DNA from: Candidatus Nanoarchaeia archaeon
GTDB lineage: Archaea > Nanobdellota > Nanobdellia > Tiddalikarchaeales > Tiddalikarchaeaceae
Assembly (NCBI GenBank): GCA_041653395.1
Contig: JBAZFK010000005.1
Location: forward strand, 93-64,092
Length of the DNA stretch: 64,000 bases
Direction of reading: 5' to 3'
The notes below the pieces were generated by a model, which saw only the letters and a list, made by a program, of their open reading frames with translations, was not told the origin of the DNA and made no database searches. The position numbers were made by a program, and so were the translations under genes. Shown piece by piece: positions 11,427-64,000 of this stretch; position 1 is the first letter of the stretch, and each line of letters starts with the position of its first letter.

Positions 11427-12902
11427 ATGAAGTCAATCACTCCAGTAGTTAGTGTCATATTATTGGTTTTAATCACTATTATTGCAAGCGTTTCAGCTTA
11501 TTTTTTCATCAATTCCAGTGTTTTAAATTTAGAATCAAGGGGTAATTTGGACAATAATCCAATAACTGATAATTCAAGAATTAATTTAGTTTCAATCACT
11601 GGCTCTAAGGCAATAATCAGGAATGACGGCTCAAGCCCAGTGATTGATGTTGTAATCTTTATCAATGGTGAACTGTTAAATTTTACTCTAAATAACCCTA
11701 TTTTGCCAGGAGAATTAATGGAGATTAATTATAATGCAAGGCAAGCAGGTGAAGATTTGGAAATAAAATTGATATATAATTATGGAAAAACTGTGCAAGC
11801 AGTAAGCCCAGCTAGCATGAATACTAATTCTTCAGGATTCACTAATAACTCATTGCCATTAAATGAAATAGGAGAAAATCAGGAGCCTGATTATTCTTTT
11901 TTTAATTGCATTGATAATGACATCAATAATACCTGGTTTAGTGGAGCAATAAATGGGAGCAATGGCGCTTGCTGCGGAGATGATGGAGCACTTGATACTT
12001 TTTTTAATGGAAGCATTTCTTCAACATCTACTTTCTGCCAGAACGGAACTTATGTCAATGCAGATATTGACAATAATCAAACAGTTTGTGAATACTATGG
12101 TTATAATTGGTTTTTTTATGAACTTTATAATCAGACATGGTCTTTTGAAGAAGGCTCAGGAACAACTACTACAAGCAATAATGGAATTTCAGGCACTTTT
12201 AGCAAAAGCAGCAATACTGATGGAACAATAATAATTCCCCAATGGACTACTGGTTATTCTGGAGGAGGATTATATTTTCAAAATGAAGTAATGTATGGGT
12301 ATTCTGCAGGAGGCAGAGTGGTTGTTGGCAATGTAGCACAGATAAACATGACTCAAGAAGTAACCTTGAGCGCATGGATTTATCCTCAAACTTTTGGAAC
12401 TTATCCTGATATGAATGTTATTGCAGGAAGGGAAAAAGCATACACTATGAGAATCTATAAGTCAACAGGGCAATTCTATGTTTATTCAATAGATGAGGAG
12501 GGTGATGTAACCACTTGCCAAGCTCAAGCTGGAATAATTGATGAAGAATGGAGATATGTTACTATGGTTGTTAGACCTTATACTGATGGCTGGACAATAA
12601 GAGGATATGTTAATGGAAGTTTAATATGCGAAGATACAAACACTCTTTTTAATGGGCCAAGAGATGATTCCGAATCCTTCAGGATAGGTGAAGAAAAGGA
12701 TTGGTGGGGATTAAGTTATAGTGTGGGCAATTTTGAAGGAAAAATAGATGAATTAATGCTTACAAATATTTCTTTATCAAGCATAGAGATAAATAATTTG
12801 TATAAAGGTTATTTAGTTGCTTGTTGTGGAGATGACGGTGATCTTGATAATTTCAGCAACAGCACTCATCAATGTGTTAACGGCGTTTTTAGCGTAATTT
12901 GA
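11427..12902 (+). CDS. Archaeal pilin-like (class III signal) surface protein with LamG/concanavalin-like domain
   Basis: MKS-ITPVVSVILLVLITI leader; T.SAW.Y...W.YV..V...YVNG...F.G.IDE LamG pattern between two CCGDD motifs; many N-x-S/T sequons. Confidence 0.85.
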   Translation: MKSITPVVSVILLVLITIIASVSAYFFINSSVLNLESRGNLDNNPITDNSRINLVSITGSKAIIRNDGSSPVIDVVIFINGELLNFTLNNPILPGELMEINYNARQAGEDLEIKLIYNYGKTVQAVSPASMNTNSSGFTNNSLPLNEIGENQEPDYSFFNCIDNDINNTWFSGAINGSNGACCGDDGALDTFFNGSISSTSTFCQNGTYVNADIDNNQTVCEYYGYNWFFYELYNQTWSFEEGSGTTTTSNNGISGTFSKSSNTDGTIIIPQWTTGYSGGGLYFQNEVMYGYSAGGRVVVGNVAQINMTQEVTLSAWIYPQTFGTYPDMNVIAGREKAYTMRIYKSTGQFYVYSIDEEGDVTTCQAQAGIIDEEWRYVTMVVRPYTDGWTIRGYVNGSLICEDTNTLFNGPRDDSESFRIGEEKDWWGLSYSVGNFEGKIDELMLTNISLSSIEINNLYKGYLVACCGDDGDLDNFSNSTHQCVNGVFSVI

Positions 12903-12943
12903 TTTAAGCAATTTTATAAATAACCCATTAATATTTATGATTA

Positions 12944-13046
12944 ATGAAATCAATCACTCCAGTAGTCAGTGTCATATTATTGGTGCAATGACGGCGTAGA
13001 CAATGACGAAGACGGCTACTATGACTCTGATGATTCGGATTGCTGA
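12944..13046 (+). pseudogene. Internally deleted pilin-like adhesin gene: 5' leader fused out of frame to a C-terminal CxDGxDNDxDG motif
   Basis: The first ~40 nt match 11427-11466 with 2 mismatches (MKSITPVVSVILLVQ*). From 12981 another frame reads WCNDGVDNDEDGYYDSDDSDC*. Confidence 0.75.
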
Positions 13047-13086
13047 CACAAAAGAATTAAAAAAGCGCTGTTTCTTTAATTAATTC

Positions 13087-14836: not shown

Positions 14837-17164
14837 ATGATTAAAAAATTCCTACTCTTAACTGTATTATTATTAGCACTAAGCACGTCTTACAGTGAAG
14901 CAACTTATGGGTATAATAACACAAAAGGTTATGTGAACTTATCAAATGGGAATCCAGCAGCTAACATGAACATAAGCCTTAACTGCTCAAGCGAACTAGA
15001 AACCTTCACCCATTATGTTTTAACTAACTCTTTAGGTTACTATACTTTTTCAGGAATAATTGATATTTATAACTCTTCAGCAACAGAAGCATTATGCATT
15101 ATTAATTCATCAAAAAAAGGAATGCTAAATATCACTAACAATGCTTTTTCAATAACTATTAATCCAGGAACACAGGATTATTACAAAGGTATAGAGGCAA
15201 ATTTCACATTTAATAACACAGGTACTGCAATTTTTGATTTTTCAGGATTAAACGGAACATTGATTTCTTCAGACAATGAAGGCGTGAAAAATAAAACCAT
15301 AACTTTAAACTGCCCAAACCAAATTAATACAACAGTGACTGATGAGTACGGGTTTTATAATTTCTCAGGAGTAAACTTTGAGCATGCCTGCAACGCTGAA
15401 GGCTGCGAATTATTATGCAATGTAAGCCACTTAACAGAATATAACCTTTTCACAATTGACCCTCAAGGATACTATGGAGAAACAATAACTGTCAATTTAA
15501 CAAAGAATATCAATTACCAGCAAGGGGTAAAAGTTAACGGAGTTTTTACTCCAATTAACGGAAGCTACGGCAACATGACTTATTTTATCTTCAATGCATC
15601 CAGCTACGCTGGCACTATTAACTCATGCAGATATTCTAACGAGTCAAAAACTTTCAATAGCATGACTGATTTTAACATAACTTCTGGAAAAGTTTTCACT
15701 GCAAATATTTCAACAATTGTTTCAGGGCAGTACAATTTTTATGTATTATGCAACACTTCATTGTCAGTTGAGTCAAATCCAAGAATGGTGTCTTATGATG
15801 TTCATTTAAACGGAACCAACATAACTATTAATTCTCCAATTAACGGAAGCGTTTTTTCAAAAAATTCAATCTTTAACATAACCTTAGATATTCCAGCACT
15901 CATCTGCAGCTACAAGATTAATTATGATTCAAATGCTCATCAAATGACTAACACGAGCTTACTTACTTTTATAGCAAATCAAACAGGATTAGTTGAAGGA
16001 AGCAACAATGTCACTTTTTACTGCACTGATTATTATGGTGTGGGTTCAAACATTCAAATGAATTTTACAGCAGATATAACTGCTCCTTCTGCAGCTGAGT
16101 CTTTTTCAGCTAAAGCAACCAATGTTGGAACTGCAATATTAACATGGAATGAAGTGTCTGATGCTACTTATTATTATATTTACAGGGGGCAGTCAAACCA
16201 AGGGGCGATCACTTTTAGTTTTCTTGCAAATATTTCTTCATCAACCTCTTATCAAGATTTAAATGTGGAAACTTATCAAGTATATTACTACAAAATTAGT
16301 GCAGTTGACTTGTATGGCAATGAAGGCCCAGTTTCTTACAGTTTAGGTGTTTCAATTATGAACGAGCTGGACTATAGAAAAGAAATTTTTGATTTAGTAA
16401 CTGAATTAAACACTCTTAAAAATGAAACAGTTAAATCTGAAAATGATTTGAAAGAAAAAAATGAACTAATCGCTAAAGCATCAGGGTTGTGGAATGATTT
16501 AGGATTCTTCAATGATTATCTTACCTTACTATCATTATCAGAGATTGAAACAATAAACAATGTGAAATATTTAATGAATAATTATGAAACTAAGACTTTA
16601 GATGAGCTGAAATCAATGAGTTACCAGCTGGATTACAACCTGAAAACTTACTTGAAAAATTACAAAAAATCCATTAATGTTAAGACTTTAAACACTTCTA
16701 TTGATTCATTGAACATTACTTCAATAATTAATGAATCATTACTTGAAGTTAACGGAAACAAGTACTATAAATATAATATAACAAATATTATTTTAAACCC
16801 TTCAAATAATCTTGTAAAAAACATTAATATGACATTTAAAGTGCCACAAGGGGCAGAAATTGAAGGCTTTGAAATTATTAATTCAACAATTATTTACTCT
16901 CTTAATTCCCTTGATTCGTTGAGTTCGCAAACAATTTCATACGCATTCCTTTCATTAAGCAGCTACAGCAACAATATCACTGCTCAAATGCTTGAAGTTG
17001 AAATGCCTAAATCAATCACTGCTTACCAAGTTTTGAATGAATCAAAAGACACTACTATTATAGGCTTAAGCATATGGGGATTAACCCTAATATTGTCAGT
17101 TTCATTATTATTTCAGTACAAAAATTACCACATAAATTTTAAAAATAGGCAGAATTCTAATTAA
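14837..17164 (+). CDS. Large secreted/surface glycoprotein: signal peptide, beta-sandwich repeats, FN3 domain, coiled coil, C-terminal TM anchor
   Basis: Hydrophobic N-terminus; LTWNEV....YYIYR...Y.D..V.....YYYKISAVD..GNEG FN3 motif; dense N-x-S/T; C-terminal hydrophobic helix. Confidence 0.7.
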   Translation: MIKKFLLLTVLLLALSTSYSEATYGYNNTKGYVNLSNGNPAANMNISLNCSSELETFTHYVLTNSLGYYTFSGIIDIYNSSATEALCIINSSKKGMLNITNNAFSITINPGTQDYYKGIEANFTFNNTGTAIFDFSGLNGTLISSDNEGVKNKTITLNCPNQINTTVTDEYGFYNFSGVNFEHACNAEGCELLCNVSHLTEYNLFTIDPQGYYGETITVNLTKNINYQQGVKVNGVFTPINGSYGNMTYFIFNASSYAGTINSCRYSNESKTFNSMTDFNITSGKVFTANISTIVSGQYNFYVLCNTSLSVESNPRMVSYDVHLNGTNITINSPINGSVFSKNSIFNITLDIPALICSYKINYDSNAHQMTNTSLLTFIANQTGLVEGSNNVTFYCTDYYGVGSNIQMNFTADITAPSAAESFSAKATNVGTAILTWNEVSDATYYYIYRGQSNQGAITFSFLANISSSTSYQDLNVETYQVYYYKISAVDLYGNEGPVSYSLGVSIMNELDYRKEIFDLVTELNTLKNETVKSENDLKEKNELIAKASGLWNDLGFFNDYLTLLSLSEIETINNVKYLMNNYETKTLDELKSMSYQLDYNLKTYLKNYKKSINVKTLNTSIDSLNITSIINESLLEVNGNKYYKYNITNIILNPSNNLVKNINMTFKVPQGAEIEGFEIINSTIIYSLNSLDSLSSQTISYAFLSLSSYSNNITAQMLEVEMPKSITAYQVLNESKDTTIIGLSIWGLTLILSVSLLFQYKNYHINFKNRQNSN

Positions 17165-17177
17165 ATTACAATTAATT

Positions 17178-17261
17178 GCTAAGATGGCGGAGCGGTCTAA
17201 CGCGTCAGCCTTGAGAGCTGATCTCCGAAAGGGGGCGCAGGTTCAAATCCTGCTCTTAGCG
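17178..17261 (+). tRNA. tRNA-Ser (anticodon UGA), long variable arm, CCA not encoded
   Basis: Acceptor GCTAAGA/TCTTAGC, anticodon arm TCAGC-CTTGAGA-GCTGA, variable arm, T-arm GCAGG-TTCAAAT-CCTGC, discriminator G. Confidence 0.96.
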
Positions 17262-17322
17262 GTACGATAAAAGTCAATCGCTGTTTTGTGTGTTTTTAAA
17301 TTACTTTGAGAGTTAATAAAAC

Positions 17323-18480
17323 ATGAAAGACAGATGGAAACTTCACAGCTACGAAAAGGATCTTGACCGTAGAGTGAAGAACATAAAAGAGGGAAAAGTT
17401 TCCGATATATCTAACAAGAATTACCTTTTGGATTATTATGATTACCTGCTTAGCCAAGGGCTGAGCGTGCCAAGAATAGCTAAATGTTTGAGATTAGTTC
17501 AGAAAGCTGATGAATTTTTGAAAAAAGACTTAAAGACAGTTACAGAGAAAGATGTTATATCTTATTTTGGTTGGCTTGAAAGAAGCGAGTACAGCGAATG
17601 GACTAAGTCAGATTTCAAATCAGAGCTTAAGAAATTCCTAAAAAGGTTGTATGATGGTGAAGCTCCAAAATTCATAAATAACATTAAATCCACTGTGAAA
17701 AATAAGAGCAAGATGCTTCCGCAAGAGGTTATTACTGAACAGGAAGCAATAGAAATGATAAAGATTGCAGGAAGTGTAAGGAACAAAGCCTTAATCAGTG
17801 TGCTTTATGAAAGTGGGTGCAGAATCGGAGAGATACTCACTCTTAAAATGAAACATGTAGTGTTTGATGAATACGGCTGCTTACTTAATGTGAATGGAAA
17901 GACTGGAGTTAGACAGGTAAGAATTATATCTAGCACTCAATTGCTAAGCCAATGGTTCACAGACCACCCAAACCAATCACCAGAAAGCTACATCTGGAAT
18001 TCAAGGCAAAACGACTTAATTAATTATAACTCCATTGTCAAGTTTTTGAAAGACACAGCTAAAAGAGCAGGCATCACTAAAAGAGTTAACCCTCACTCAT
18101 TCAGGCACGCCAGAGCTACACACCTGGCAAATAAATTAACAGAAGCCCAGATGAAAATGTATTTTGGCTGGTCCCAAGCATCCAAAATGGCAGCAGTATA
18201 TGTTCATTTATCAGGCCGTGATGTAGACAACGCAATACTTGACGTGTACGGAATCAAGAAAAAAGAAGATGTCAAAGACACCTTTGCTCCAAAGAAATGC
18301 AGATGCGGACAACTAAACACACCAAACAATAAATACTGCTCTAAGTGCGGACAAATTCTAGACTTGAAATTACAAATGGAAGTGCAAGACAAAAAAACAG
18401 AACTAAAAGACATACTTTCAGAACTAATAAACAACCCAGAAACCCTTGAAAAACTTAAGCAAATGGTGCAGGCCAAATGA
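17323..18480 (+). CDS. Tyrosine recombinase/integrase with C-terminal zinc ribbon
   Basis: ESGCRIGE (R), GKTG (K), HSFRH (HxxR), FGW, AVYVH (Y), then CRCG...YCSKCG. Confidence 0.95.
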   Translation: MKDRWKLHSYEKDLDRRVKNIKEGKVSDISNKNYLLDYYDYLLSQGLSVPRIAKCLRLVQKADEFLKKDLKTVTEKDVISYFGWLERSEYSEWTKSDFKSELKKFLKRLYDGEAPKFINNIKSTVKNKSKMLPQEVITEQEAIEMIKIAGSVRNKALISVLYESGCRIGEILTLKMKHVVFDEYGCLLNVNGKTGVRQVRIISSTQLLSQWFTDHPNQSPESYIWNSRQNDLINYNSIVKFLKDTAKRAGITKRVNPHSFRHARATHLANKLTEAQMKMYFGWSQASKMAAVYVHLSGRDVDNAILDVYGIKKKEDVKDTFAPKKCRCGQLNTPNNKYCSKCGQILDLKLQMEVQDKKTELKDILSELINNPETLEKLKQMVQAK

Positions 18481-18664
18481 AAACAGACGCACTAACACTA
18501 AATATGATGCACCATTTGACTCTTTTTATTGCCTTTGTCTACTGGTCTAAAACTCTTGATACTTGGATGGCATTTGGAATAATAAGCATAAGTATTTTTA
18601 TTGGATATTTTTTAGATTAAATTCTTAAAATGAAAAATTCACAATCTTTTTATCTAATAAATTA

Positions 18665-19684
18665 TTGAAATTTTTTATGTTATATGAAATTATTACTGGA
18701 ATTTTATTATTAATTTTAATAGGTATTATAATTTATACATCATGTACCATTTTTAGAAATTTTAGTATATTTAAAAAAAATATTAAAAAAGAATGGAATC
18801 AATTTTTTAAAAAACATGATTTTAAGAAAACTTTTTTAAAAAATACTTTTTTAAAGAAATTTAATTTACTTAAAAAACCTCTTTTTTCAATTTTTTTAGT
18901 TACCATAATATCCATAATTTTACTTGTAATAATTTTTACTACAAAAACTTTTATTGATTTATTTATATTTTCATTTTCTTTTTTAAAAAATTCAATATAT
19001 GATTCAATGAAACTTTTTATTTTAAATTTAGGAATTTTAGATTTTTCAGAATTATTTTTAATTTCATTATATACATATATTTTTTTATCATTATTATATT
19101 TTTTAATTTTCTTTACCCTTATGATTTTATCAATATTAATTAATAAAAAAGATCTTACTTTTTCTTCTAATCTTCCAAATGCAGCTTTAATTATTATAGT
19201 TTTTGGAGTTTTTTGTATGGGAATTCAATTTTTAGATAATGAATGGGGAACTCCTCGATTAAACTTTGATAATTACTCTTTTTCAGATCCAAGTGGTTTT
19301 TTTATGGTAGGCAATAACATTACTATTAAATCTACTTTAGATGGAGCATTAATAAATGGAAAGGTTGAATATACTTTTTATAATGGTTCTAAATTAATTC
19401 ATTATTTAAATAATGAGACATTTCCAAAAGATTATACTAATTCTTCAGAGGCATCTAATGTTTTTTTTGATAAAGTATACTTTAAATCTCTAGAAAATGT
19501 AATTTCTTTAGATATTACTATAGAAACTCATTATAAAAATGAATCTTTTATTTCCAACTATTATTATCCTATAAACTTTTTAACTTTAAAAGAATATAAA
19601 GAAAGAAGATCAACATATATAACATATCTGTTAGCATTAATAGGATTATTAATTTTTACATTACCTAAATATTTAAAAAAGTAA
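18665..19684 (+). CDS. Very AT-rich multi-pass membrane protein (cargo), unknown function; ATG at 18677
   Basis: Long ORF with several hydrophobic helices; no recognisable motif. Confidence 0.55.
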   Translation: MKFFMLYEIITGILLLILIGIIIYTSCTIFRNFSIFKKNIKKEWNQFFKKHDFKKTFLKNTFLKKFNLLKKPLFSIFLVTIISIILLVIIFTTKTFIDLFIFSFSFLKNSIYDSMKLFILNLGILDFSELFLISLYTYIFLSLLYFLIFFTLMILSILINKKDLTFSSNLPNAALIIIVFGVFCMGIQFLDNEWGTPRLNFDNYSFSDPSGFFMVGNNITIKSTLDGALINGKVEYTFYNGSKLIHYLNNETFPKDYTNSSEASNVFFDKVYFKSLENVISLDITIETHYKNESFISNYYYPINFLTLKEYKERRSTYITYLLALIGLLIFTLPKYLKK

Positions 19685-19882
19685 ACACTCTTCTCTCTCT
19701 GCAAGTATTTTAAGCTCCTTCGCTCAAGCTCAGAGAGCATTAAAAAACTTGCTGCCACAGTATAACACAGTGTTTGGCACCGCTCGAGAAGAAAAGCCTT
19801 CTATTCTTTCCTTGACTGACGTGCCCAAACCCCGGATTTTTTCAACGAAAGTCTTTGATTGAAAAAATCGGAGGTTTGTAAA

Positions 19883-20119
19883 ATGAATACAAAAATGTTA
19901 GTAAGTAGGGTGTGGGCAACCACAGGGTTAAGCTTCAAGGTAAAGAAGCTAATCGACGAAAAAACGAGAAAGGTTTTAGAAGAAACCAATCCAGAAGTGA
20001 ATCAGATAGGTATGCTGGAAGATATCAGCAAGCTATTAAGCTTGGACTGGAAGGTCTCAAGGCAGCTCTGGAGAATGAGAGAAGAGCTGAAAGCTGTTAA
20101 AGAAGGTGCTCAAGAATGA
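19883..20119 (+). CDS. Small element protein, possibly a ribbon-helix-helix regulator
   Basis: GGAGG at 19870-19874 before ATG 19883; strand-helix-helix pattern TGLSFKV/KKLIDEKTRKVLEE/IGMLEDISKLL; higher GC than cargo. Confidence 0.5.
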   Translation: MNTKMLVSRVWATTGLSFKVKKLIDEKTRKVLEETNPEVNQIGMLEDISKLLSLDWKVSRQLWRMREELKAVKEGAQE

Positions 20120-25444: not shown

Positions 25445-25446
25445 AT

Positions 25447-52621: not shown

Positions 52622-55600
52622 ATGAAAGCAATAACTCCTATTATAAGTGTTGTTTTATTAATCCTGATTACTGTTTTTGCCAGCGTGTCAGCTTATTTTT
52701 TCATAACTTCAACAATGAATGATTTGGAAGGTGGCATTAATCTTAACACCGCCTTTTCTGATAATTCAAAACTAAGCATTATAAGCTTGTCAGGCAGCAA
52801 GGCAATCATTAAAAATGATGGAAAAAGCTCAATCAGCGAAGTTATTGTTTTTTTAAATGGCGAAATGTTCAATTACACCTTTAATCCAGCCCTTCCAGGA
52901 GGCGAGGCTGCTGAGATGTATTTTTCGCCCCAATTAGCTGGAGAGGATTTGGAGCTGATAATATTTTATGGAATTGGAAAAACTGTTAGCTACACTAGCC
53001 CTGCAGCAGCCAACACTAATGATTCAGGATTTGTCACAGCAACTATTCCAGTTGTTGTTTTGGCAAGCATTGTGGATAATACTACTCAATTATTAGGCTA
53101 CTGCCAAGCCTCAGTGTATAATGCATCAATTGAGTCAATTTATTATTATGAATGGCTGCTTGATGAAGAGCTAAACAGCTCAGGAAGCGCTATAGGCAAC
53201 CATGACAATGAGAACTACTTATTAAGCAATATCACTTCAGCTGAAGGCTCATGGAAATTCAAATGCTTAATAGGAAATGGTACTTATAATTCTTCATGGA
53301 AGCTAAGCGCAGCAGTAATAGTGGGAGAATCAGGAAGCAACGAGCCAGATGACACTCTTATTTACTGCTTATCTAATAATTCAAGAAATACTTGGTTTAG
53401 CGGAAGCATAACTGGAAACAATGGCGCTTGCTGCGGAGATGACAGAATAAATGATGTTTTCCACAACAATTCTTACTTATGCAGTTATGGAGGAGTAATC
53501 TATGATGAAGATAATTTGTACACTGAAGACAATTATGGGGACTATTATGATTACTCAAGCGGAAAAGGGGTTTGTGAATTAAATGGCAATGTTTGGTTTG
53601 AGAATCCAGTCAGTTTTGAAGATGATGTTTCTTATGGGTTGGGTCCAGTGCTTATTGATGTAGAGCTTTCAGATTTTGATAATGATGGTGATTTGGACAT
53701 TGTTGTTTTAAACCAGTACGATGTTTCATACACTGATGCTGTTTTCAGGGTTTTGTTTAATGATGGAGATGGGCTTTTTTCAGGAACAACTGTTTACGTT
53801 GTTGATGGCAATATTGTTGATTTAAGCATTGCTGACATTAACAATGATGGTTACAATGATATTTTAATAGTTAATTATGGGGGTAGTGAATTGGATGTTT
53901 ACTTGAATGATGGTGACGGAACATTCACTTATGATTCTTATGTTGAGATTAGTTGGCCTTGGAAGAGCATAGTTGGAGATTTAGATAATGACGGTGACTT
54001 GGATGTTATTGCAAGCACTTACTTTGATGATGACATCAGTGTTTTCTTGAATGATGGCACTGGAAGCTTAAGCTATGATGATGATTGGAGTGATTTGGGA
54101 GGAGCAGGTGATTTGAAGCTCGCTGATTTAAACTTTGATGGCAATCTTGATGTTATTAATGCTGATTCTAATTCTGATAGCATAAGGTACAGATTAGGTG
54201 TTGGAGATGGGACTTTTGGGTCTTTAAATACTTTAAATGTAGGAACTAACCCTATTGGATTAGGGATTGGAGACTTAGATAAAGATGGTGACTTGGATAT
54301 TATAGCATCAAATAATGGTTCTGATAGTTTCAGCGTTTGCTTGGGAGATGGTGCGGGCAGTTTTGCAGAGGATGTTGAATACGATTTTGATTACGCGCCC
54401 ACTTACATAACTCTTGGAGATTTGGATAATGACGGTGACTTAGATGTTCTTGCAACAACTCAATTATCAAATAATTTCATGATTTCATTTAATGATGGTG
54501 ATGGCACGTTTGGCTCAAGCACTCTTTATGGCTTAAGCAACTCAACTTATGCAATAGCTGTTGGCGACTTGGATAATGATGGTGACTTAGATGCAGCATT
54601 TACGCATTTTCAAAATGATTACTATAAAATTGACCATTTACTTATTAGTTTAAACACAGGCATAACTGGAACTAAGGGTCCATGCTGCGGGGATGATGAA
54701 GCAACTGATGATTTTTACAACTCAACAAATTATTGCTGCAACGGAGCCTTTAATACAGGAAGTTGCTATTGCGGGGATGGAGTATGCCAAGCATGGGAGA
54801 GTGAATTAAGCTGCAGCGAAGACTGTATTTTTGTATTTATTAACAATGTAAGTATTGTTAGTTTTAACTATGGATTAAGAGGATATTGCAATGCTTCAAG
54901 CAGCAATGAACTTGAAACATTAGCTTATGAATATAATTGGTCAAAGAATGGTGAAATATTTCTTAGTGGCATCATGTTCAGGCATAATTCCATAACTTCC
55001 AGTAAATATAATTCCTGCGGCTTATTGGAGAACGGCAGTGCGATGTGCTGGGGCAGAAACGATTATGGTCAGTTAGGCACTGGAGATACGACTTTAAGCA
55101 ATGTGCCAGTCTATGTAAGCGGAGGCTACAATTTTTCAGAAATTGCTTCAGGAGATGAGTATTCATGCGGCTTGCTCACTAATGGAAGCGTGATGTGCTG
55201 GGGAAGTGGAAGCAATGGGCATTTGGGCAATGGAGGCAATTCAGAAAGTCATGTTCCAGTTTTTGTAAGAGGAAATTATGTTTTCAAAGAGTTAAGCAGC
55301 ATAAAATTAGAGCATACTTGCGGAATCTTGACTAATGGGCGCGCTGTTTGCTGGGGTGATGGAGATTATGGGGATTTAGGAAATGGAGGAGAATCAGGCA
55401 GCAATATGCCAGTTTTCGTAAGCGGGAATTATGAATTTTTGGAAATCAGCACGGGAATGTATCACACTTGCGGAATATTAATTAATGGAAGTGCGATGTG
55501 CTGGGGCTCTAATTATTACAGCCAATTAGGCATAACTGGAGCAAGCTTCAGTTATGTTCCAATATTTATCAGTGAAGAATACTCTTTCAGAGCAATCAGC

Positions 55601-57592
55601 GCTGGATGGCAGCATACTTGCGGAATATTGACTAATGGAAGCGCTGTTTGCTGGGGTTATAATAATCATGGCCAGTTAGGAAATGGTGAAATTGGCGAAA
55701 GTTATATACCTGTCTTTGTTAATGGGAATTATTCATTTATTGATATCTCTGCTGGAAATATTTTTACTTGCGGAGTGCTTGCGAATAATTCAGCAGTTTG
55801 TTGGGGTGACAATTATTACGGCCAGTTAGGCAACGGCAGCTCTGGGGGGCAAAGCAGCGTGCCAGTCTTCGTAAATGGAGGTTACAATTTTAGTGTAATA
55901 AATTCAGGGGCAGTGAATGATTTTTCATGTGCAGTAATGGCTAATGGAAGCGCTGCTTGTTGGGGTTATAATGGCAATGGCCAGTTTGGCAACGGCAGTT
56001 CAGGGGGCATAAGTGCAGTGCCTATGTTCGTTTCAGGAGCTCACAATTTCAGTGCTCCTAATTATTATAATAACAAAAATTTGCTTGTAAGTCAGGTAAG
56101 TCTTGATAATTATTATTACCTGCAAGGTGGGCTTTTGATTTTCAGCTGCAGAGTCAAGGATTATTTAGGGGATTATTCAGGATGGATGAGTCAGGAAATT
56201 AATTTGCCTGTGCCTTCAGCTAACAATGCAAGCATTGTTGAATTCAGCTACGGCTTAAAAGGGTACTGCAATATCACAAGCAATTATAACAATGACTTAT
56301 TGAAGTATAATTTCACTTGGAAAGTTAACGGGGCAAGCATTATTAATAATATAAACTTTAAGCAGTCAAGTTATTCTCTTGGAGAAAGGCACTCTTGTGA
56401 TGTTCTCGAAAATGGCAGTGTTGTGTGCTGGGGAGAGGGAGGATATGGTCAGTTAGGCAATGGCTTAGATGACAGCAGCAATGACCCTGTTTTTATAAGT
56501 GGAGGTTACAATTTTACTAAGGTAAGCAGCAATACACTCAGTGTGTGCGGGATTTTAGGGAATGCTAGCGCTGTGTGCTGGGGTTACAATAATTACGGCC
56601 AGTTAGGCAATGGAGGAACAGGTTATAGTAACTTGCCAGTTTTTGTCAGCGGAGGCTATAATTTCAGTGATTTAAGAATGGGAGGTTATCACTCCTGCGG
56701 AGTTCTCTTTAATGGCAGCGCTGTGTGCTGGGGTTATGGAATATATGGTGAATTAGGAAATGGTACTTCATTAAGCAGTTCAGTGCCAGTTTTTGTAGCT
56801 GGAGGCTATAATTTTTCAAGTATCTCTGTTTCGCAGAATAATGGTCCTGGAACAGGAAGCCATTCATGCGGAATATTAATTAATGGTAGTGCTGTGTGCT
56901 GGGGTTTGAATGAGTATGGCCAATTAGGTAATGGTAGCTCAGGAGGACAGAGCAATGTGCCAGTCTTCGTAACTGGAAACTACAAGTTCGCTTCAATAAA
57001 CACTGGTTATAAATTCACTTGCGGAGTATTACTTAATGGCAGTGTTGTGTGCTGGGGTTATGGAGAAGATGGTGAATTAGGCAATGGAGGTAGCAGCAGT
57101 TCCAGTACGCCAGTCCTTGTCAATGGAGGTTACAGGTTCGTTTCTATAAGTGTTTCTAAATATTATGCTTGCGGTTTATTGATTAATTCTAGCGCTGCTT
57201 GCTGGGGTTATAATGGTTACGGCCAGTTTGGCAACGGCGGAACAGAGAGCACTAACTCTCCAGTTATTGCAGGAACAGGATATAATTTCTCTCAAATTGC
57301 CACAGGAAACTCTCATGCATGCGGAGTGCTTATAAATGGGAGCAAAGTTTGCTGGGGTTACAATACTTATGGCCAGTTAGGCAACGGAAGCTCAGGAGGA
57401 CAGAGCAATGTGCCAGTCTTCGTAACAGGAAACTATAATTTTGTAAATAATTCTTATTATTGGAACAAAAATGATTTTGTCAGCATGCTTCCAAGCAACT
57501 ATTACTCTTCAGGAAATACAGTGGTTTTTGAATGCATAACCGCTGATGCAGCAAGTCAGTCACTTCCAAAAAATATGACTTTAGTAATTTAA
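52622..57592 (+). CDS. Giant pilin-anchored adhesin: class III leader, Ig-like, CCGDD hinge, 7 FG-GAP/VCBS repeats, two 7-blade RCC1/BLIP-II propellers
   Basis: MKA-ITPIISVVLL leader; seven DxDxDGDLD repeats; 14 CWG.N.YGQLG repeats. Confidence 0.88.
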   Translation: MKAITPIISVVLLILITVFASVSAYFFITSTMNDLEGGINLNTAFSDNSKLSIISLSGSKAIIKNDGKSSISEVIVFLNGEMFNYTFNPALPGGEAAEMYFSPQLAGEDLELIIFYGIGKTVSYTSPAAANTNDSGFVTATIPVVVLASIVDNTTQLLGYCQASVYNASIESIYYYEWLLDEELNSSGSAIGNHDNENYLLSNITSAEGSWKFKCLIGNGTYNSSWKLSAAVIVGESGSNEPDDTLIYCLSNNSRNTWFSGSITGNNGACCGDDRINDVFHNNSYLCSYGGVIYDEDNLYTEDNYGDYYDYSSGKGVCELNGNVWFENPVSFEDDVSYGLGPVLIDVELSDFDNDGDLDIVVLNQYDVSYTDAVFRVLFNDGDGLFSGTTVYVVDGNIVDLSIADINNDGYNDILIVNYGGSELDVYLNDGDGTFTYDSYVEISWPWKSIVGDLDNDGDLDVIASTYFDDDISVFLNDGTGSLSYDDDWSDLGGAGDLKLADLNFDGNLDVINADSNSDSIRYRLGVGDGTFGSLNTLNVGTNPIGLGIGDLDKDGDLDIIASNNGSDSFSVCLGDGAGSFAEDVEYDFDYAPTYITLGDLDNDGDLDVLATTQLSNNFMISFNDGDGTFGSSTLYGLSNSTYAIAVGDLDNDGDLDAAFTHFQNDYYKIDHLLISLNTGITGTKGPCCGDDEATDDFYNSTNYCCNGAFNTGSCYCGDGVCQAWESELSCSEDCIFVFINNVSIVSFNYGLRGYCNASSSNELETLAYEYNWSKNGEIFLSGIMFRHNSITSSKYNSCGLLENGSAMCWGRNDYGQLGTGDTTLSNVPVYVSGGYNFSEIASGDEYSCGLLTNGSVMCWGSGSNGHLGNGGNSESHVPVFVRGNYVFKELSSIKLEHTCGILTNGRAVCWGDGDYGDLGNGGESGSNMPVFVSGNYEFLEISTGMYHTCGILINGSAMCWGSNYYSQLGITGASFSYVPIFISEEYSFRAISAGWQHTCGILTNGSAVCWGYNNHGQLGNGEIGESYIPVFVNGNYSFIDISAGNIFTCGVLANNSAVCWGDNYYGQLGNGSSGGQSSVPVFVNGGYNFSVINSGAVNDFSCAVMANGSAACWGYNGNGQFGNGSSGGISAVPMFVSGAHNFSAPNYYNNKNLLVSQVSLDNYYYLQGGLLIFSCRVKDYLGDYSGWMSQEINLPVPSANNASIVEFSYGLKGYCNITSNYNNDLLKYNFTWKVNGASIINNINFKQSSYSLGERHSCDVLENGSVVCWGEGGYGQLGNGLDDSSNDPVFISGGYNFTKVSSNTLSVCGILGNASAVCWGYNNYGQLGNGGTGYSNLPVFVSGGYNFSDLRMGGYHSCGVLFNGSAVCWGYGIYGELGNGTSLSSSVPVFVAGGYNFSSISVSQNNGPGTGSHSCGILINGSAVCWGLNEYGQLGNGSSGGQSNVPVFVTGNYKFASINTGYKFTCGVLLNGSVVCWGYGEDGELGNGGSSSSSTPVLVNGGYRFVSISVSKYYACGLLINSSAACWGYNGYGQFGNGGTESTNSPVIAGTGYNFSQIATGNSHACGVLINGSKVCWGYNTYGQLGNGSSGGQSNVPVFVTGNYNFVNNSYYWNKNDFVSMLPSNYYSSGNTVVFECITADAASQSLPKNMTLVI

Positions 57593-57862
57593 AATCCAGA
57601 TGAAAGCGAGTCATTATGCATAAGCTTTAATTATAAATGGATAAATTTTGAATTGATTCCAACGGGCGTTGCTGAAAATAAATATTGGAGTACTGTTTCT
57701 ATGAGTTCAGATGGCAGCGTAATAATTGCAGGTGTTTACAATGGCTGCTTGTACAAACTTGATTTTTCAGGTTTTAGCGCTTGCTGCGGCGATGACGGGG
57801 CAGCTGATATTTTCAATAATGGAATTTACCAATGCGTTGGCGGAGTATTTAGTGCTATTTAA
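57593..57862 (+). pseudogene. Orphan C-terminal adhesin module, open and in frame directly after the stop of the giant adhesin
   Basis: Reads NPDESESLCISFNYKW...WSTVSMSSDGS...[21 protein letters not shown], matching the C-terminus of 11427-12902. Confidence 0.7.
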
Positions 57863-58445
57863 TGATTACCAAGATTATTTTAGTCTTCGCTTTATTTTTA
57901 GTGTGAAACCTGAACTGGTTTTTTAATAATAACTCATCCTGCTTAATCACTTCAACATTTTTTTCAGGGAATAATTTTTGCAAGATTTTCAAGCCGTCCC
58001 CTTTGTAAATAAGGTAGATAGTGTTAGATAACTTTGAGCATTTCATCAAGAACTCTTTGTCGCTGTCTTTAGTTTGCACGCCAAAAGGAGGGTTAGTGAT
58101 TAACACATCTGCTTTTCCGTTGTAGTCAAAAATGTTGGAGTTAACAACTTCAAAATTATTTAATTTTAATTCTCTAAGGGTTTCATTAGTTGCTTTAATT
58201 GCGCTAGGGTCAATGTCTATAAAGATTACTTTTTTAGCGCCAAGCATTAAAGCTCCAATTCCTAAAATGCCATTGCCGCATCCAGCGTCAATAATAGTCT
58301 TAGTAGTGAGGTCATCATTCATGTAAGCAGTCCATAATAAGTCAGCAGCAATGCTTGAAGGGGTAGTGTACTGCTCTAAGGAGGGTTTTTTATCAAGGAA
58401 ATCTTTAATGAATGATAATTTAATCTCCAACTCTTTCTTATTCAT
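57855..58445 (-). CDS. METTL5-like (archaeal rRNA m6A) methyltransferase
   Basis: LEQY.TP..IAA..L, DAGCG.G.L..G, NPPFG. Confidence 0.9.
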
Positions 58446-58897
58446 TTATTAAACCTTGCAACTATTCTTTCAATCTGGAAAGCGTAGTTGCTGAATGTGT
58501 CAAGATTAATCCTGAATTCATTCTCTTCAATGTGCAAAGTTTTAGGGAAAGTAGCCAAGTGCCAGTCAATGCTAAACTCTCCGTTTTCTTCAATCATTGA
58601 TTTAATAGTGTTAAGTGAGGCATTAACAGTAATATAGAAGTCAAAGATTAAGTTGTCGCTTAGTTCATTTATTGCTTTGATATAGTCAGCGTTTGAGTCG
58701 CATTGAGCTAATAATATTTCGTCGCTTCCTAGCTTCATTTTTTCCATTTTTTCATAGTTGAATTTGGATTTTTTCTTGTTAAATGCAAGTATTGTGAACT
58801 TGTTAGACATTAAATCAAGCACTTCCCATAAGAACTTGTTATAGTCCTTTTTTGAGTCCTGCTCAACTATTACTTCATTTCCGCTTATTTTAATCAT
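58442..58897 (-). CDS. Hypothetical protein
   Basis: 151 aa ORF coupled to gatE and the methyltransferase by overlaps. Confidence 0.6.
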
Positions 58898-60677
58898 TTA
58901 TTCTCAACTCCTGTTTTACCACTTTGCTTATGAGTCCAGCATCAGCTTTTCCTCTTAATTGCTCTAGCGCTTTTTTCATTAGTATCCCAAAAGCGTTCTC
59001 ATTTTTAAGCAACTCTTTATTATTATCAATAATTGCTCTTATTTTTAACTTTAACTCTTTAGGGCTTAACTGCTTATATTCAGCAATTAAGCTTTTAATA
59101 TTCTCTTTTTTTAGCATTCTTTCAATGATTAATGGCAATGATTCTTTGCAGATTTTCTCCTCTTCAAGCAATTTGAACAAAAGTATCAGGTTTTCTTTGC
59201 CTATTTTCTCAGCAGGGTTCATCAGTATTATTGAAGCAGCAGTGGTATTGTCAGCATTAGTTTTGTCAATAATTAATTCATAAAGTGATAATTTGTCGCT
59301 TTTTAATAATTGGGAGCTTAATTCATCATTAAGCCCTGTTGATTTCAGCCAAGCATATTTTTCTTCAGGGGTTTTGCTGATATTAGCTATTATGTCAGCA
59401 ATCATTTCTTGCTGTATTCTTATTACTGGCACGTCAGTTTCAGGGTACATTCTTTGTCCGCTAGGCAAAGGCCTTAAGTAAGAATTAGTTGCGTCAGCAT
59501 GATTAGGAGCTCTCACTTCCTTTATTATCTCTTCAGATATTGCTTTTAAGAATTCCATTATTATTTTCTCGGCAGAGATTATTTTCTCGCTATTGGTTGA
59601 GATTAGGATAAAATTATCCTTGTCTTTGCATTCAAGCGCTTTAATGACGCTGTTAACTTCATTAATGCTGACTCCATAGTTTGGCAGCTCATCTTTATGA
59701 AGCAAGCCATTGATTGACAATCCCACTTTTAAGTGCTCAGCTATCTCTTTTCCGAAAGTTTTATCTTTTTGGATTTTAGTTCCTAAAATCCCTGAAGCGT
59801 TGCTTAATTTAAAGCCGTAAATTGTCTGGTTTTTTAAAAAATTGCAAGCAGTGTTTGAAAATACTTTGCTAACATCTTTATAGTCATTTAATTTCACTTT
59901 ATTTTTCTTTAATTCCTGCCTAATTTTTATCAAGTTTTCTTGCCTACTAATCTCATTTTCTATGAATTTAGGCATTAAGCTTAAGTCCTGAACACCCTTT
60001 ATTTCAACTCTTGCGCCTAAAGGTATTGAGACATTTACATCTTGGCGTATGCTTCCAATTCCTTTCACTATTTTTCCTGTGAATTTGGCAATCATTCCTA
60101 TTTTTTCAGCAACCTCCCTTGCATGCATAGGGTTTTTAATGTCAGGCTCAGTTGCTATCTCAATTAAGGGTATTCCTAATCTTTCCAGCGAAAAAGTGTT
60201 GTCATCAACTCTTTTAGCGCTGTCTTCTTCAATGCATAATGAGGCAATCCTCACTTTTCCTTGGCTTGTTTCAATCCATCCGTTAGTTGCGAGCAGCCCT
60301 GTTCTTTGAAAGCCTGCTACAGCGCTTCCGTCAATTATTAATTTTCTCATGATTTGCAGCTCATCAACAGGTTTCATGTTTAATAATATTGCAATTTCAA
60401 GCCCTGTTTTAAGGGAGTATTCATCTATTTCTCTTGGAGGCTCTTCATCAATGTCAACTAAGCAGGTGTTTTCATAAAAGCAATTATATTTAACAATCTT
60501 ATTTTTTTCCTCTTCTTTTTTTGCAGCTAGGTCAATGCTTCCAGTTTCTCCTTTGACAGCGTGCAGCTTCCTTTTTATAACATAATCTGGCTTGTTTTTA
60601 GTGTCATCCTGGCATGGGCATCTGCAGAATAATTTTGAGCTATTAACCTGCACATGCAGTTCTAGTCCGCATTTCAT
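58890..60677 (-). CDS. gatE: Glu-tRNA(Gln) amidotransferase subunit E
   Basis: CGLE.H.Q....KLFC.C, CLVD.DEEPP, MRK..IDGS...GFQRT, EED, RLGIPLIEIATEP, G.G.IRQD.NVSI, RMYPETD. Confidence 0.96.
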   Translation of the reverse strand: MKCGLELHVQVNSSKLFCRCPCQDDTKNKPDYVIKRKLHAVKGETGSIDLAAKKEEEKNKIVKYNCFYENTCLVDIDEEPPREIDEYSLKTGLEIAILLNMKPVDELQIMRKLIIDGSAVAGFQRTGLLATNGWIETSQGKVRIASLCIEEDSAKRVDDNTFSLERLGIPLIEIATEPDIKNPMHAREVAEKIGMIAKFTGKIVKGIGSIRQDVNVSIPLGARVEIKGVQDLSLMPKFIENEISRQENLIKIRQELKKNKVKLNDYKDVSKVFSNTACNFLKNQTIYGFKLSNASGILGTKIQKDKTFGKEIAEHLKVGLSINGLLHKDELPNYGVSINEVNSVIKALECKDKDNFILISTNSEKIISAEKIIMEFLKAISEEIIKEVRAPNHADATNSYLRPLPSGQRMYPETDVPVIRIQQEMIADIIANISKTPEEKYAWLKSTGLNDELSSQLLKSDKLSLYELIIDKTNADNTTAASIILMNPAEKIGKENLILLFKLLEEEKICKESLPLIIERMLKKENIKSLIAEYKQLSPKELKLKIRAIIDNNKELLKNENAFGILMKKALEQLRGKADAGLISKVVKQELRIND

Positions 60678-61999
60678 TTTACTAGCCTCTTTTTAATCTC
60701 TCCTTTAAGATTAGTGCCCATTAATTCCTTAATCTTTTTAGGGTGATTAGCTAGTAGCCATGCCATCTTAACAAATGCTGTTTCAGCAGTCATTGTTTCA
60801 CTGCTTATTACTCCATAATTCAATAAATCCCTTCCTGGGCTGTAAACATTCATGTTAACTCTTCCGTTAATTGTCTGAGAGCACATAGCAACAACGCATC
60901 CGCTGTCAATTAAGGCTTTAATCTCTTGCCTGATTAAATCATGCTCTTTAGTTAAGGAGTCAATCTCGCTTATGGGGCAATGGCCTAGCCCTGTTCCTTC
61001 AATGATTAAACCCTTATATTTTTTTTCTCTAAAAAATGCGAAATGATCACTAAACATGTTAGTGTGAATTTTTATAATAGCCACTTTTTCTTCCATTTTT
61101 GGCAATACTTCAAATTCAGCTCTCAGCTCTTTTTTGCTAGTGTATTCATTAAAAAAAGTGACGTCATCATCTAAATATTCAACTTTTGCAATCAAGTCGT
61201 CGTTTATTTGCTTGAAAGCATCCCTTTTGCTTGAATGAAGCTTTTTAGCATTAACTCCCCTTATTATTGAGCAGGCATCATCGCTGCTTGAATTATGCAT
61301 GCAGATTGCGACTCCGCAAAAATCAGTATTCCTTATGAACTTGGCTGCGCAGACAATGTTCATTTCAGCATCGCTGCTTGGCCGATCGCTGCTTCTTTGG
61401 GCGCCAACCAATAATACTGGCACAGGAATGTTGTTTAAGATAAATGATAATGCTGCGCTAGTATAAGCCATTGTGTCAGTGCCATGAGTAATTATTATTC
61501 CTTTGCTTCCTAGAGCAATCTCGGATTTTACAAACTCTGCCATTTTTTTATAGTGAGCAAACCTCATATCATCACTGAACATGTTTCCCATGAACAAGCT
61601 GTTAATTGGCCCGTATTTCATAAGCCCTGGAAACATTCCAATTAATTCATCAGGATTAAATCTAGACACCACACCTCCAGTTCTGTAATCCACTTTGCTC
61701 GCAATGGTTCCTCCAGTGTGCAGGATACTGATGAATCCCTTTTTTAATGCCATTTTTTTCGTTTTTTCTTCCTTAGGATTGGAGGCTTTTTTTACTAGCT
61801 TAATTTCATCAATGTTTTTTATATTGATTCCAATATTGTAACCATTGTCTAATTTAAGAATAATTGTCTCTTCTTTCAAATAATCAGGCCTGTTGATTAA
61901 TGTTCCATTGAAAGCTTCATTTCCTTTTTTAACCTCAATAATGTCAAGAATCCCTATTTTTTTCTTTTTCAACTGCTCCAAAACTTCCTTTGAATACAT
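60674..61999 (-). CDS. gatD: Glu-tRNA(Gln) amidotransferase subunit D
   Basis: LKLDNGYNIG, TGGTIASKVDYRTG, HGTDTM, GAQRSSDRPSSD, asparaginase fold. Confidence 0.96.
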   Translation of the reverse strand: MYSKEVLEQLKKKKIGILDIIEVKKGNEAFNGTLINRPDYLKEETIILKLDNGYNIGINIKNIDEIKLVKKASNPKEEKTKKMALKKGFISILHTGGTIASKVDYRTGGVVSRFNPDELIGMFPGLMKYGPINSLFMGNMFSDDMRFAHYKKMAEFVKSEIALGSKGIIITHGTDTMAYTSAALSFILNNIPVPVLLVGAQRSSDRPSSDAEMNIVCAAKFIRNTDFCGVAICMHNSSSDDACSIIRGVNAKKLHSSKRDAFKQINDDLIAKVEYLDDDVTFFNEYTSKKELRAEFEVLPKMEEKVAIIKIHTNMFSDHFAFFREKKYKGLIIEGTGLGHCPISEIDSLTKEHDLIRQEIKALIDSGCVVAMCSQTINGRVNMNVYSPGRDLLNYGVISSETMTAETAFVKMAWLLANHPKKIKELMGTNLKGEIKKRLVK

Positions 62000-62088
62000 A
62001 CTATTAGCAAATTTTCCAAGATTTTAATATCTTTTGGAAATTAGTTAATTACTAATTTATTTAAATAAGCAATTGATAAAAATGTTTA

Positions 62089-64000
62089 ATGAAAACTATC
62101 ACTCCAATAATTAGTGTTATCTTATTGGTCTTAATTACTATAGTTGCCAGCGTTTCAGCTTATTTTTTCATCAATTCCAGTGTTTTAAATCTAGAGTCTA
62201 GGGGTAATCTAGACAATTATCCTGGAGCTGACAACTCAAGGCTTAATTTAGTGAGCATAACAGGAAGCAAGGCAATTGTCAGGAATGACGGCTCCAGCCC
62301 AGTGAATGAGGTTATTGTTTTCATTAATGGCGAATTGTTCAACTACACTTTAGACTCTCCTCTTTTGCCGGGTGAGTTAAGGGAGATTGATTATTTTACT
62401 CAGGCTGCTGGTGAGGATTTGGATATAAAGCTTATTTATAACAGGGGAAAAATTGCCCAAGGAGTAAGCCCTGCTGACAAGAACACTCCAGCTTCAGGCT
62501 TTGACAGCACCCCAGATATTTTTTACGATGCTTGCGGAGCAGGAAACACAGTTGTTGATTGGAGTGATAAATTAATCTTTTCATTGCTTGATGATCTTAC
62601 CTGCGGATGCAATTCCAGTTTTGGCTCTAACTATTTAATTAATCCTGATTTTGAGCAAGGTTTGGACAATTGGACTGTTACTACTTATGGAGAAACTGTT
62701 GAAATAAGCACTGATACTGTTTTTTCTGGAACTAACTCTGTTTATATTGAAAATAACGCAGGAGATTTAGGGGTTCAGCCAGGAGTTTTTCAACTCGTTT
62801 CAGATGCAGGAAGTTTTGCTTTCAGAATAAATGGAACTAATGCTTCATCAGAGTCATTTATTGCTGCATTTTTTGACGGAGGAGAGCACGCAATTTATTA
62901 TGTAATATTAGGCAGTGATGATTTGACTGAAATGTGCAATACAACTCAAGGGGGTGGTGTTTTTGTTAAATGCTTAAGTGGTTATGCTGAGAATGTGTGG
63001 AATCTTGTTGAAGTGTTCCCTGAAAGCGATTACTTAGAACTTTTTAGTGCACAGCCTTCCCAGTATGTATTAGGATTTAGAATTGGAGGTTCGGGAAGCG
63101 CTTATTTTGACAGCGCAGGAGTTTACAATTCTAGCGAGGGAAAATATTGCGATTCCAGCAATACCAGAGGGGAAGCTGAAGGAGTATGCTATAATAACCA
63201 ATGCACTTCAACTTACTTAGGCGCCAGAACAAGCGCTTCAGAGTTCTTAACCAATGAAGACCAATCAGTTTCGTATGATTTAATTAATTTTAACAGTTCA
63301 GCAAGATGCATTCTTAATATAAACAGCCAAAATTATGAAATGAGTCTTTCAGCTTCAAGCGCGAGCTACAATTTTATCACTCCTTTAGGTAGAGGAGATT
63401 ATGTTGCAAACATTACATGCTTAAGTGCTATTAATATGAATAAAGAATACAATTACTCAGTTAATATTGTTAAAAATTATAAGACAATTGATTATAATTT
63501 AGGAAGCATTTTTGATTGGTATTATATCACTGGAATGGTTGGGGATTTTATTCCAGCCTCCAGCGGCAAGGAAATAATTATTCATGACAGAGATAATAGC
63601 TCTTATTTTATTTTTTCAAGCGAAGGAGATTACTTGGCAAACATTAGTTATCCCTCATATGATCCAATTTTTTCTTATCTTGCAGATTATGATCTTGACG
63701 GAAGCAACGAGCTAGTAACAAAAGATTATTATAGAATTTATATTTTTAATGAGTCTTTGCAAATGGAGTTGAATTTTTCTTCTCCTGGCACTAGGGGAGG
63801 GCTTGCAGTCTCTGATATTAATGAATCAGCTGGTTTAGAGATAATAAACTATTATTGCGGAGGAATAACTGCTTACAATAACACTGGGGGTTTAATTTGG
63901 GAGTTTTTCTCATACAACACTGAATGCCCGCAACTTTATTCAGGAATAGTCACTCCAGTAGTTGAAGATATTGATTTAAGCACTCCAGGTTTAGAAATAT
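62089..64000 (+). CDS. Pilin-anchored adhesin (partial, runs off window): class III leader, CBM-like domain, FG-GAP-like repeats
   Basis: Read manually: MKTITPIISVILLVLITIVASVSAYFFINSSVLNLESRGNLD..., NPDFEQG...W (CBM4/9-like), DYDLDGSNEL. 42 bp at 62149-62190 are identical to 11487-11528. No stop seen to 64000. Confidence 0.85.
   Translation, partial: MKTITPIISVILLVLITIVASVSAYFFINSSVLNLESRGNLDNYPGADNSRLNLVSITGSKAIVRNDGSSPVNEVIVFINGELFNYTLDSPLLPGELREIDYFTQAAGEDLDIKLIYNRGKIAQGVSPADKNTPASGFDSTPDIFYDACGAGNTVVDWSDKLIFSLLDDLTCGCNSSFGSNYLINPDFEQGLDNWTVTTYGETVEISTDTVFSGTNSVYIENNAGDLGVQPGVFQLVSDAGSFAFRINGTNASSESFIAAFFDGGEHAIYYVILGSDDLTEMCNTTQGGGVFVKCLSGYAENVWNLVEVFPESDYLELFSAQPSQYVLGFRIGGSGSAYFDSAGVYNSSEGKYCDSSNTRGEAEGVCYNNQCTSTYLGARTSASEFLTNEDQSVSYDLINFNSSARCILNINSQNYEMSLSASSASYNFITPLGRGDYVANITCLSAINMNKEYNYSVNIVKNYKTIDYNLGSIFDWYYITGMVGDFIPASSGKEIIIHDRDNSSYFIFSSEGDYLANISYPSYDPIFSYLADYDLDGSNELVTKDYYRIYIFNESLQMELNFSSPGTRGGLAVSDINESAGLEIINYYCGGITAYNNTGGLIWEFFSYNTECPQLYSGIVTPVVEDIDLSTPGLEI

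Follow-up and report, generated by a model that had tools for sequence, protein, structure and literature searches.

The 64,000-nt stretch of low-GC archaeal DNA analysed here (the window) carries a paralogous gene family whose products combine an N-terminus of class III (pilin type) with exchangeable passenger domains; three open genes and one deleted remnant represent it. The genes are read, with moderate confidence, as archaeal 'modular pilins', that is, displayed adhesins diversified by recombination at module borders. A modular pilin is composed of a pilin module and at least one module not specific to pilus biology; here LamG, FG-GAP and RCC1 modules stand C-terminal to the pilin module. 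Passenger modules in the family, one to several, are LamG, FG-GAP, RCC1, BspA-type leucine-rich repeats (BspA-LRR), PQQ propellers and a domain resembling a carbohydrate-binding module (CBM-like), and in a subset of the family they are strung together by small Cys-rich connector units with the motif CCGDD. The source organism is a tiny uncultured groundwater archaeon of the DPANN group, Nanoarchaeia. The window encodes GatD/GatE and Cbf5 with a ribosomal protein cluster; relatives are named Candidatus Nanoarchaeia or Woesearchaeota.

In the proposed mechanism, a class III signal peptidase would remove the short MK(S/A/T) leader. The pilin module would then insert the protein at the base or the tip of a type IV pilus-like filament or, alternatively, hold it as a pseudopilus or membrane stalk, and the passengers would be displayed outside the cell as adhesins. 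A toolkit for attachment to other cells is a plausible function. Location at the pilus tip, processing by prepilin peptidase and host recognition, all proposed earlier in a reading made from the sequence alone (the sequence-only reading), are steps that we infer. It is unlikely that the family and CCGDD form a dedicated 'plug-and-play' system, by which ultra-small DPANN archaea would re-tool pilus adhesins at standard junctions, with cassettes in a few conserved slots setting host range or partner specificity and with the orphan module and the remnant described below as fresh footprints.

Pilin module and passengers

In a six-frame scan of the window the leader MK[SAT]ITP... is present at 11427, 12944, 52622 and 62089 only, which verifies the four class III-leader genes or remnants listed in the sequence-only reading. 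The N-terminal block (N-block) common to the three open genes, put there at about 140 amino acids (aa), is about 138 aa long (identity 76% between the 11427 and 62089 proteins, 52% between those of 11427 and 52622). Its leader motif, MK[SAT]ITPV(V/I)SV(I/V)LL... with the putative cut after the third residue, is kept in 46 relatives. The 11427 protein matches TIGR02537 (NCBIfam archaellin/type IV pilin N-terminal domain, cutoff 20 bits) at 22.5 bits, and its N-block alone at 25. In AlphaFold2 (AF2) models of this protein and of a 267-aa relative, which has the pilin module, two connectors and no passenger, a helix (4–38) is followed by a beta sandwich (52–127), with a predicted local distance difference test score (pLDDT) above 90. 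Best Foldseek matches in the PDB are archaeal type IV pilins and archaellins (8fk7, E 7.2e-6; 6w8u; 9eq7; 5tfy); FlaF/FlaG are also among the top matches of the N-block. The match to 8fk7 runs end to end (139 columns, 136-residue target). Judged by the TIGR02537 match together with the predicted fold, the N-block amounts to an entire type IV pilin module of the archaeal kind, more than a leader.

As passengers the genes carry domains of adhesin type, namely LamG, an FG-GAP propeller with seven blades, a pair of RCC1 propellers and a CBM-like domain. Differing passengers between paired CCGDD motifs, as described in the sequence-only reading, are borne out by Pfam and the motif scan in the 11427 gene (Laminin_G_3 flanked by CCGDD at 11970 and 12822) and in the 52622 gene (FG-GAP, seven blades). 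The LamG part gave no confident AF2 model, and the search for relatives of this passenger returned only the LamG protein itself. The two RCC1 cassettes of the 52622 gene are 49% identical. In the 62089 gene the pilin module is followed by the CBM-like domain (weak Pfam match to CBM_4_9), an immunoglobulin (Ig)-like part and an FG-GAP-like propeller; CCGDD was not found in its visible part (62089–64000). Homologs of this gene are L006 and L024, and relatives are about 895–899 aa long. All three full genes and the remnant have their own leader and a TATA-like box about 25–30 nt upstream. N-glycosylation sequons occur at 2.7–3.05 per 100 aa in the family proteins versus 1.44 in the other long open reading frames of the window, a roughly twofold density that fits glycosylated surface proteins.

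A word-based search returned 49 homologs, with FG-GAP/VCBS, RCC1, BspA-type LRR, PQQ-like and BNR-like propellers as passengers. In metagenome-assembled genomes (MAGs), scanned with a single leader peptide pattern and one genome per GTDB species, the full N-block is present in only four, from Nanoarchaeia; three of them have 6 to at least 10 copies each, and the fourth has one partial copy at a contig end. Family genes lie amid housekeeping genes in every genome examined, in agreement with the published scatter of pilin genes in Nanobdellati (DPANN) (PMC13705601).

Several observations weigh against displayed modular pilins diversified by recombination. The 62089 and 52622 proteins are just below the TIGR02537 cutoff (19.9 and 17.1 versus 20 bits), and Pfam Pilin_N (PF07790) is unmatched by all three proteins at E ≤ 0.01. 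The residue at position −1 is S, A or T, where G or A is usual. Anywhere but at its tip, a filament would hardly accommodate a passenger of 1656 aa. Pilus assembly ATPase, platform protein and signal peptidase were not found in the window; most Nanobdellati genomes with type IV filament components encode the assembly ATPase, platform protein and peptidase (PMC13705601). RNA runs containing a family gene were not found. Window alleles, where covered, are identical in the Logan contigs of three metagenomes from two studies, contigs from which rare variants are dropped, with no sign of fast switching.

A possible but doubtful alternative is that the pilin-like N-terminus is only a signal-anchor, the proteins standing singly in the membrane or on a short bindosome-like stalk, with no long pilus. 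Class III signal peptides on archaeal non-filament binding proteins are well known (PMC13705601), the genes stand apart from one another amid housekeeping genes, none of them near a pilus operon, and the passengers are very bulky. However, the whole pilin-size fold, not the helix alone, is kept (61–96% identity) while passengers drift to 36–41%, which points to a constrained interaction surface, e.g. filament packing. Relatives also encode short pilins of 151–160 aa (L029:3992-4465, L030, L031, L032) whose leader, K[TA]ITP[VI][IV]S[VI]ILL..., is nearly the same as that of the family; these could be the major subunit of a filament carrying the modular pilins. The short-pilin genes adjoin housekeeping genes, e.g. 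those of RadA and the thermosome.

Mosaic history, breakpoints and the CCGDD connector

The mosaic history of the family, shaped by recombination as the sequence-only reading had it, is strongly supported by trees and alignments. The 11427 protein and P0005 are 65% identical over aa 1–235 and 67% identical at the terminal module, and the passengers between are unrelated. On the N-block tree, paralogs group by genome (10 label changes versus 18.4 shuffled, 0/200 shuffles as low), and passenger type is nearly random (21 label changes versus 23.4 shuffled). Approximately unbiased (AU) tests reject a single N-block clade for BspA-type (p = 2e-6) and for RCC1-type members (p ~5e-181).

The sister-species contig L034 is collinear with window 48800–62487 at 86–89% DNA identity, with the common gene order DHH, Exo_endo_phos, 265-aa gene, dCMP deaminase, family gene, methyltransferase, 151-aa gene, GatE, GatD and second family gene. 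Homology to L034 enters the 52622 gene, ends at 54947, just after hinge 2, and resumes at 57870. Identity of the 52622 protein to its ortholog P0058 is 95.6% in the pilin module, 82% in the Ig spacer, 92% in hinge 1, 81% in FG-GAP and 80% in hinge 2, and falls to 41% in the first RCC1 cassette; DNA identity to the syntenic ortholog steps from 80–93% to 50–60%. Past this cassette, the window has Ig and RCC1 #2 versus hinge, FG-GAP #2 and terminal module in P0058. L034 has a whole additional BspA-type gene. The slot after GatD holds a CBM/propeller member in the window and a PQQ-propeller member in the sister contig. A clean passenger swap at this slot (slot C, 62089) was considered and dropped, the N-blocks being about 71% identical versus a mean of 89% over the long match including flanks; the gene may have been exchanged whole. 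Relative L021 is 83% identical to the 52622 gene in the Ig spacer and only 52% in the N-block, and has one hybrid CCGDD unit in place of hinge 1, the FG-GAP propeller and hinge 2 of the 52622 gene. The FG-GAP cassette is present or absent exactly between CCGDD motifs.

Ordinary duplication and divergence with no recombination, the conserved blocks resulting from strong purifying selection on some domains, is scarcely credible. The N-block and connectors are clearly under strong constraint, but AU tests reject such a history. It is also at odds with the DNA identity step against the syntenic ortholog, with unrelated passengers between conserved flanks, and with syntenic slots that hold different cassettes and, in one case, a whole additional gene. 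As read from the alignments, recombination with breakpoints at module borders, between paralogs and between homologs, diversifies the family; the products are cassette replacement, insertion, deletion and duplication, plus debris (12944, 57593).

Breakpoints were taken from high-identity alignments of family members with one another, as the 1,394 internal alignment ends, which are not phylogenetically independent. Within 12 aa of the pilin-module end lie 61% of these ends (expected 5%), and within 20 aa of CCGDD 9.5% (expected 5%, 1.8-fold excess). In these alignments the pilin-module end is the main breakpoint, a ranking that is clear despite the non-independent counts. Clustering of breakpoints at CCGDD hinges, proposed in the sequence-only reading, holds in part: cassettes are present or absent exactly between the motifs, but the excess there is only 1.8 times expectation, with 61% of the ends at the pilin module. 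CCGDD-bounded swaps, so aligned, are real but secondary.

The window has five CCGD[DNE] motifs in the six-frame scan (11970, 12822, 53429, 54683, 57782), and the majority of family members are without any CCGDD. The core derived from aligned copies is G.NG.CCGDD(G)..D.F.N.(S/T)..C.(N)G, continued as a terminal form, as a long form ending CE..G..W, or as a form with CGDGVCQAWE..C..DC behind it. Among 1.84 billion cluster representatives, a profile search returned only 92 proteins with the unit, including giants with up to 16 copies. A class III-like leader is present in only 21 of the 74 new matches; many of the rest combine a Sec-type signal with a membrane anchor at the C-terminus. Source-named members that were looked up are all DPANN (Nanoarchaeia, Ca. 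Tiddalikarchaeum, Crystal Geyser archaea). P0053 (4102 aa), P0054, P0055 and P0056 are giant DPANN surface proteins with 10–16 CCGDD units and without a class III-like leader, the first three ending in a C-terminal membrane anchor. In smaller Sec-signal CCGDD proteins (e.g. P0057, P0072, P0075) the mature chain begins with a 'CE.GGY.W' half-unit. By this distribution, the unit is a rare connector in extracellular proteins, met in this analysis in DPANN-named sources only, and not a pilin-specific hinge. No Pfam model matched the connector. AF2 models of the connectors are not confident (pLDDT 40–70), and neither a disulfide map nor hinge–hinge packing is derivable from them.

Exact identities, debris and window surroundings

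High DNA identity at leader and hinge, noted in the sequence-only reading, is exact in both cases: 42 bp in the helix region (11487–11528 = 62149–62190) and 23 bp at the hinge (11961–11983 = 53420–53442). The 42-bp run is unusual for two genes with 76% nucleotide identity (codon-shuffle P = 0.0006). The 23-bp run (P ~0.01 per pair of identical peptides, several such pairs being available) is explained by preferred codons on a conserved peptide, the genome using TGC for 87% of Cys and favouring GGA and GAT; as evidence of recombination it is ruled out by this codon bias. The helix-coding stretch at window 11484–11625 has a summed contig depth about 6x the local baseline in a source-like metagenome (run X1), indicating several copies at ≥90% identity in the X1 community, from paralogs or related organisms. 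The 42-bp run and this depth fit local gene conversion or strong constraint.

The deleted remnant and the orphan 3' module of the sequence-only reading were both verified. The remnant, read by comparison with the leader and tail DNA of L022, has its junction out of frame at a 5–6 bp microhomology TTGGTG, and its tail is the last 21 codons of a 'DND-tail' family subtype of about 540 aa, intact in relatives. It keeps its own TATA-like box upstream. X1 contigs match it without differences, one of them spanning the junction; an X3 contig starts just 3' of it. The orphan opens with a degenerate 'PDES..C...W' stretch, continues with a single piece resembling a propeller blade and closes with a terminal module with CCGDD at 57782. 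It lies inside the region that differs from L034, and its best sister-contig match is the P0058 terminal module (65% over 26 aa). The TAA at 57590 is present in assembled contigs of two samples. A nonsense mutation at this site was considered and dropped, the same end peptide being normal in RCC1-type relatives, which end exactly at ...FEC...LPKN.T..I. Because the 57590 stop is the normal RCC1-type end, the orphan probably represents an older 3' end of the slot that was moved aside; in the simplest reading, an RCC1 cassette with its own stop would have displaced it.

Programmed variation of the Neisseria pilE/pilS kind, in which hinge repeats and orphan modules would be substrates for frequent gene conversion switching the adhesin, is quite improbable. 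A promoterless orphan 3' module beside a full gene, the statistically unusual 42-bp patch between two paralogs and the grouping of N-blocks by genome, which fits conversion, are in its favour. So are unitigs that diverge at the hinge and one contig that joins hinge 1 to hinge 2 in frame (53443 to 54707, GACCGDDWASDDFYNST...). However, a single orphan is seen (57593–57862), the rest of the copies are complete genes that each have a TATA-like box, and the remnant too keeps leader and box; with each copy a complete gene with its own promoter, a pilE/pilS-type system is unsupported. Hinge DNA identity is explained by codon bias, and the alleles are identical across the three metagenomes. With the depth of a single copy and no more than 22 letters matching on one side, the joined contig fits another paralog better; as an alternative junction it was rejected. 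The slot A (52622) N-block is 95.6% identical to its ortholog versus about 52–55% to in-genome paralogs, so homogenisation is not general. Features of the family genes are listed in Table 1.

Table 1. Coordinates and architecture of the pilin-fusion family genes and their debris in the window
Feature	Position	Strand	Basis or description
Family gene 1	11427..12902	+	491 aa; translation
Gene 1 pilin module	11427-11840, aa 1-138	+	TIGR02537, AF2
Gene 1 opening CCGDD connector	~11880-12125, CCGDD at 11970	+	
Gene 1 LamG passenger	~12315-12791, aa 297-455	+	Pfam Laminin_G_3, 4.4e-16
Gene 1 terminal module CCGDD...QCVNGVFSVI	12822-12899	+	
Deleted remnant	12944..13048	+	14 leader codons, +1 frame junction, tail WCNDGVDNDEDGYYDSDDSDC and stop
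Family gene 2	52622..57592	+	1656 aa; translation, Pfam WD40_RLD, RCC1, FG-GAP_3; ortholog P0058
Gene 2 pilin module	52622-53032	+	
Gene 2 Ig-like spacer	~53033-53335	+	
Gene 2 hinge 1	CCGDD at 53429	+	
Gene 2 7-blade FG-GAP propeller	~53627-54620	+	Pfam FG-GAP_3; seven DxDxDG blades counted
Gene 2 hinge 2	CCGDD at 54683 plus CGDGVCQAWE..C..DC unit, to ~54830	+	
Gene 2 Ig + RCC1 propeller #1	~54830-56206	+	
Gene 2 Ig + RCC1 propeller #2	~56207-57589	+	
Gene 2 stop TAA	57590-57592	+	
Orphan 3' module	57593..57862	+	Separated from the 52622 gene, in frame, by one TAA
Family gene 3	62089..64000	+	≥637 aa, cut by window end; translation
Gene 3 pilin module	62089-62502	+	

Other features of the window are as follows. 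A tRNA-Ser(TGA) (17177–17262) is directly followed by a tyrosine integrase gene (17323–18480). Downstream of the integrase gene, within window 17177–35000, lies a stretch of very low GC (21–29%), which encodes a STAND-like NTPase (21529–22587, minus strand) and a secreted Cys-rich protein of 647 aa that contains an HNH motif (26764–28707). Window 17177–35000 is probably an integrated mobile element. A 565-aa protein (45482–47179) has a Sec-type signal and, right behind it, a thioredoxin/glutaredoxin-like CPHC motif. It could be an extracellular disulfide oxidoreductase, suiting a secretome rich in Cys-knotted connectors. A 775-aa surface protein (14837–17164), outside the pilin-fusion family, combines a Sec signal with a CarboxypepD_reg-like domain and has its membrane anchor at the C-terminus. 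In relatives L036:3-1235 and L035:3-614 (Cbf5 77–84% identical), other surface-protein genes occupy the slot upstream of Cbf5; one of the proteins is FG-GAP with a terminal module CCGG..LQTG.C, and the contigs end before the N-termini. In more distant relatives Cbf5 stands directly behind the ribosomal protein cluster.

Comparison with known systems

No paper describing this modular pilin family or its connector was found, and the string 'CCGDD' is in no relevant paper. For the recognition of partner cells by DPANN archaea, and their hold on them, this lineage-specific family of pilin-fused adhesins offers concrete candidate molecules, and matching chromosomal slots of sister species demonstrably hold different binding cassettes. 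The CCGDD connector is possibly a useful marker of the DPANN secretome.

Judged by architecture, the closest functional analogue is the bacterial modular pilin, represented by PilB (vWA module) and PilC (concanavalin-A-like lectin module) of Streptococcus sanguinis (Raynaud et al. 2021, PMC8179133; PMC9934059). Tip location of the bacterial proteins has been proposed on steric grounds (PMC8179133; PMC9934059). In both groups a bulky functional or adhesive module is carried on the C-terminus of a small pilin module, and lectin-like (ConA/LamG superfamily) passengers occur in both. Here, in contrast, the pilin module has an archaeal-type leader (TIGR02537) and a fold like that of Pyrobaculum pilins and archaellins. 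In relatives a small genome has 6–10+ copies, all built on one pilin module; up to three passengers follow in series in some members, and a dedicated Cys-rich connector and demonstrated cassette exchange are present. The family is best treated as an archaeal analogue of the modular pilins of Raynaud et al., not as a member of the bacterial set. The 'modular pilin' idea would thereby be extended from bacteria to archaea, with a new archaeal variant in which cassette exchange is demonstrated.

The closest archaeal precedent, by analogy, comes from Sulfolobales: the binding proteins with class III signal peptides known as the bindosome (Sivabalasarma & Albers 2026, PMC13705601). Alike are several proteins per genome with a conserved class III N-terminus and diverse C-terminal binding domains, and genes scattered away from the assembly machinery. 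Bindosome proteins are solute-binding proteins of ABC transporters, whereas the passengers here are adhesins and propellers with no adjacent transporters, and what is conserved here is a pilin fold in full, 138 aa long.

With Neisseria pilE/pilS the family has in common a pilin-linked multi-copy organisation, recombination among copies and, in one case, a promoterless 3' fragment. It differs in having no silent-cassette array, every copy being a full gene with a promoter, in the variation of whole domains and not of hypervariable loops, and in that population-level variation was not seen in contigs of the three metagenomes. With replacement flexible islands and the module exchange of phage tail fibres it has in common different binding cassettes in syntenic slots and sharp homology boundaries at module borders; unlike in those systems, the exchange takes place inside chromosomal pilin-fusion genes of a DPANN archaeon.

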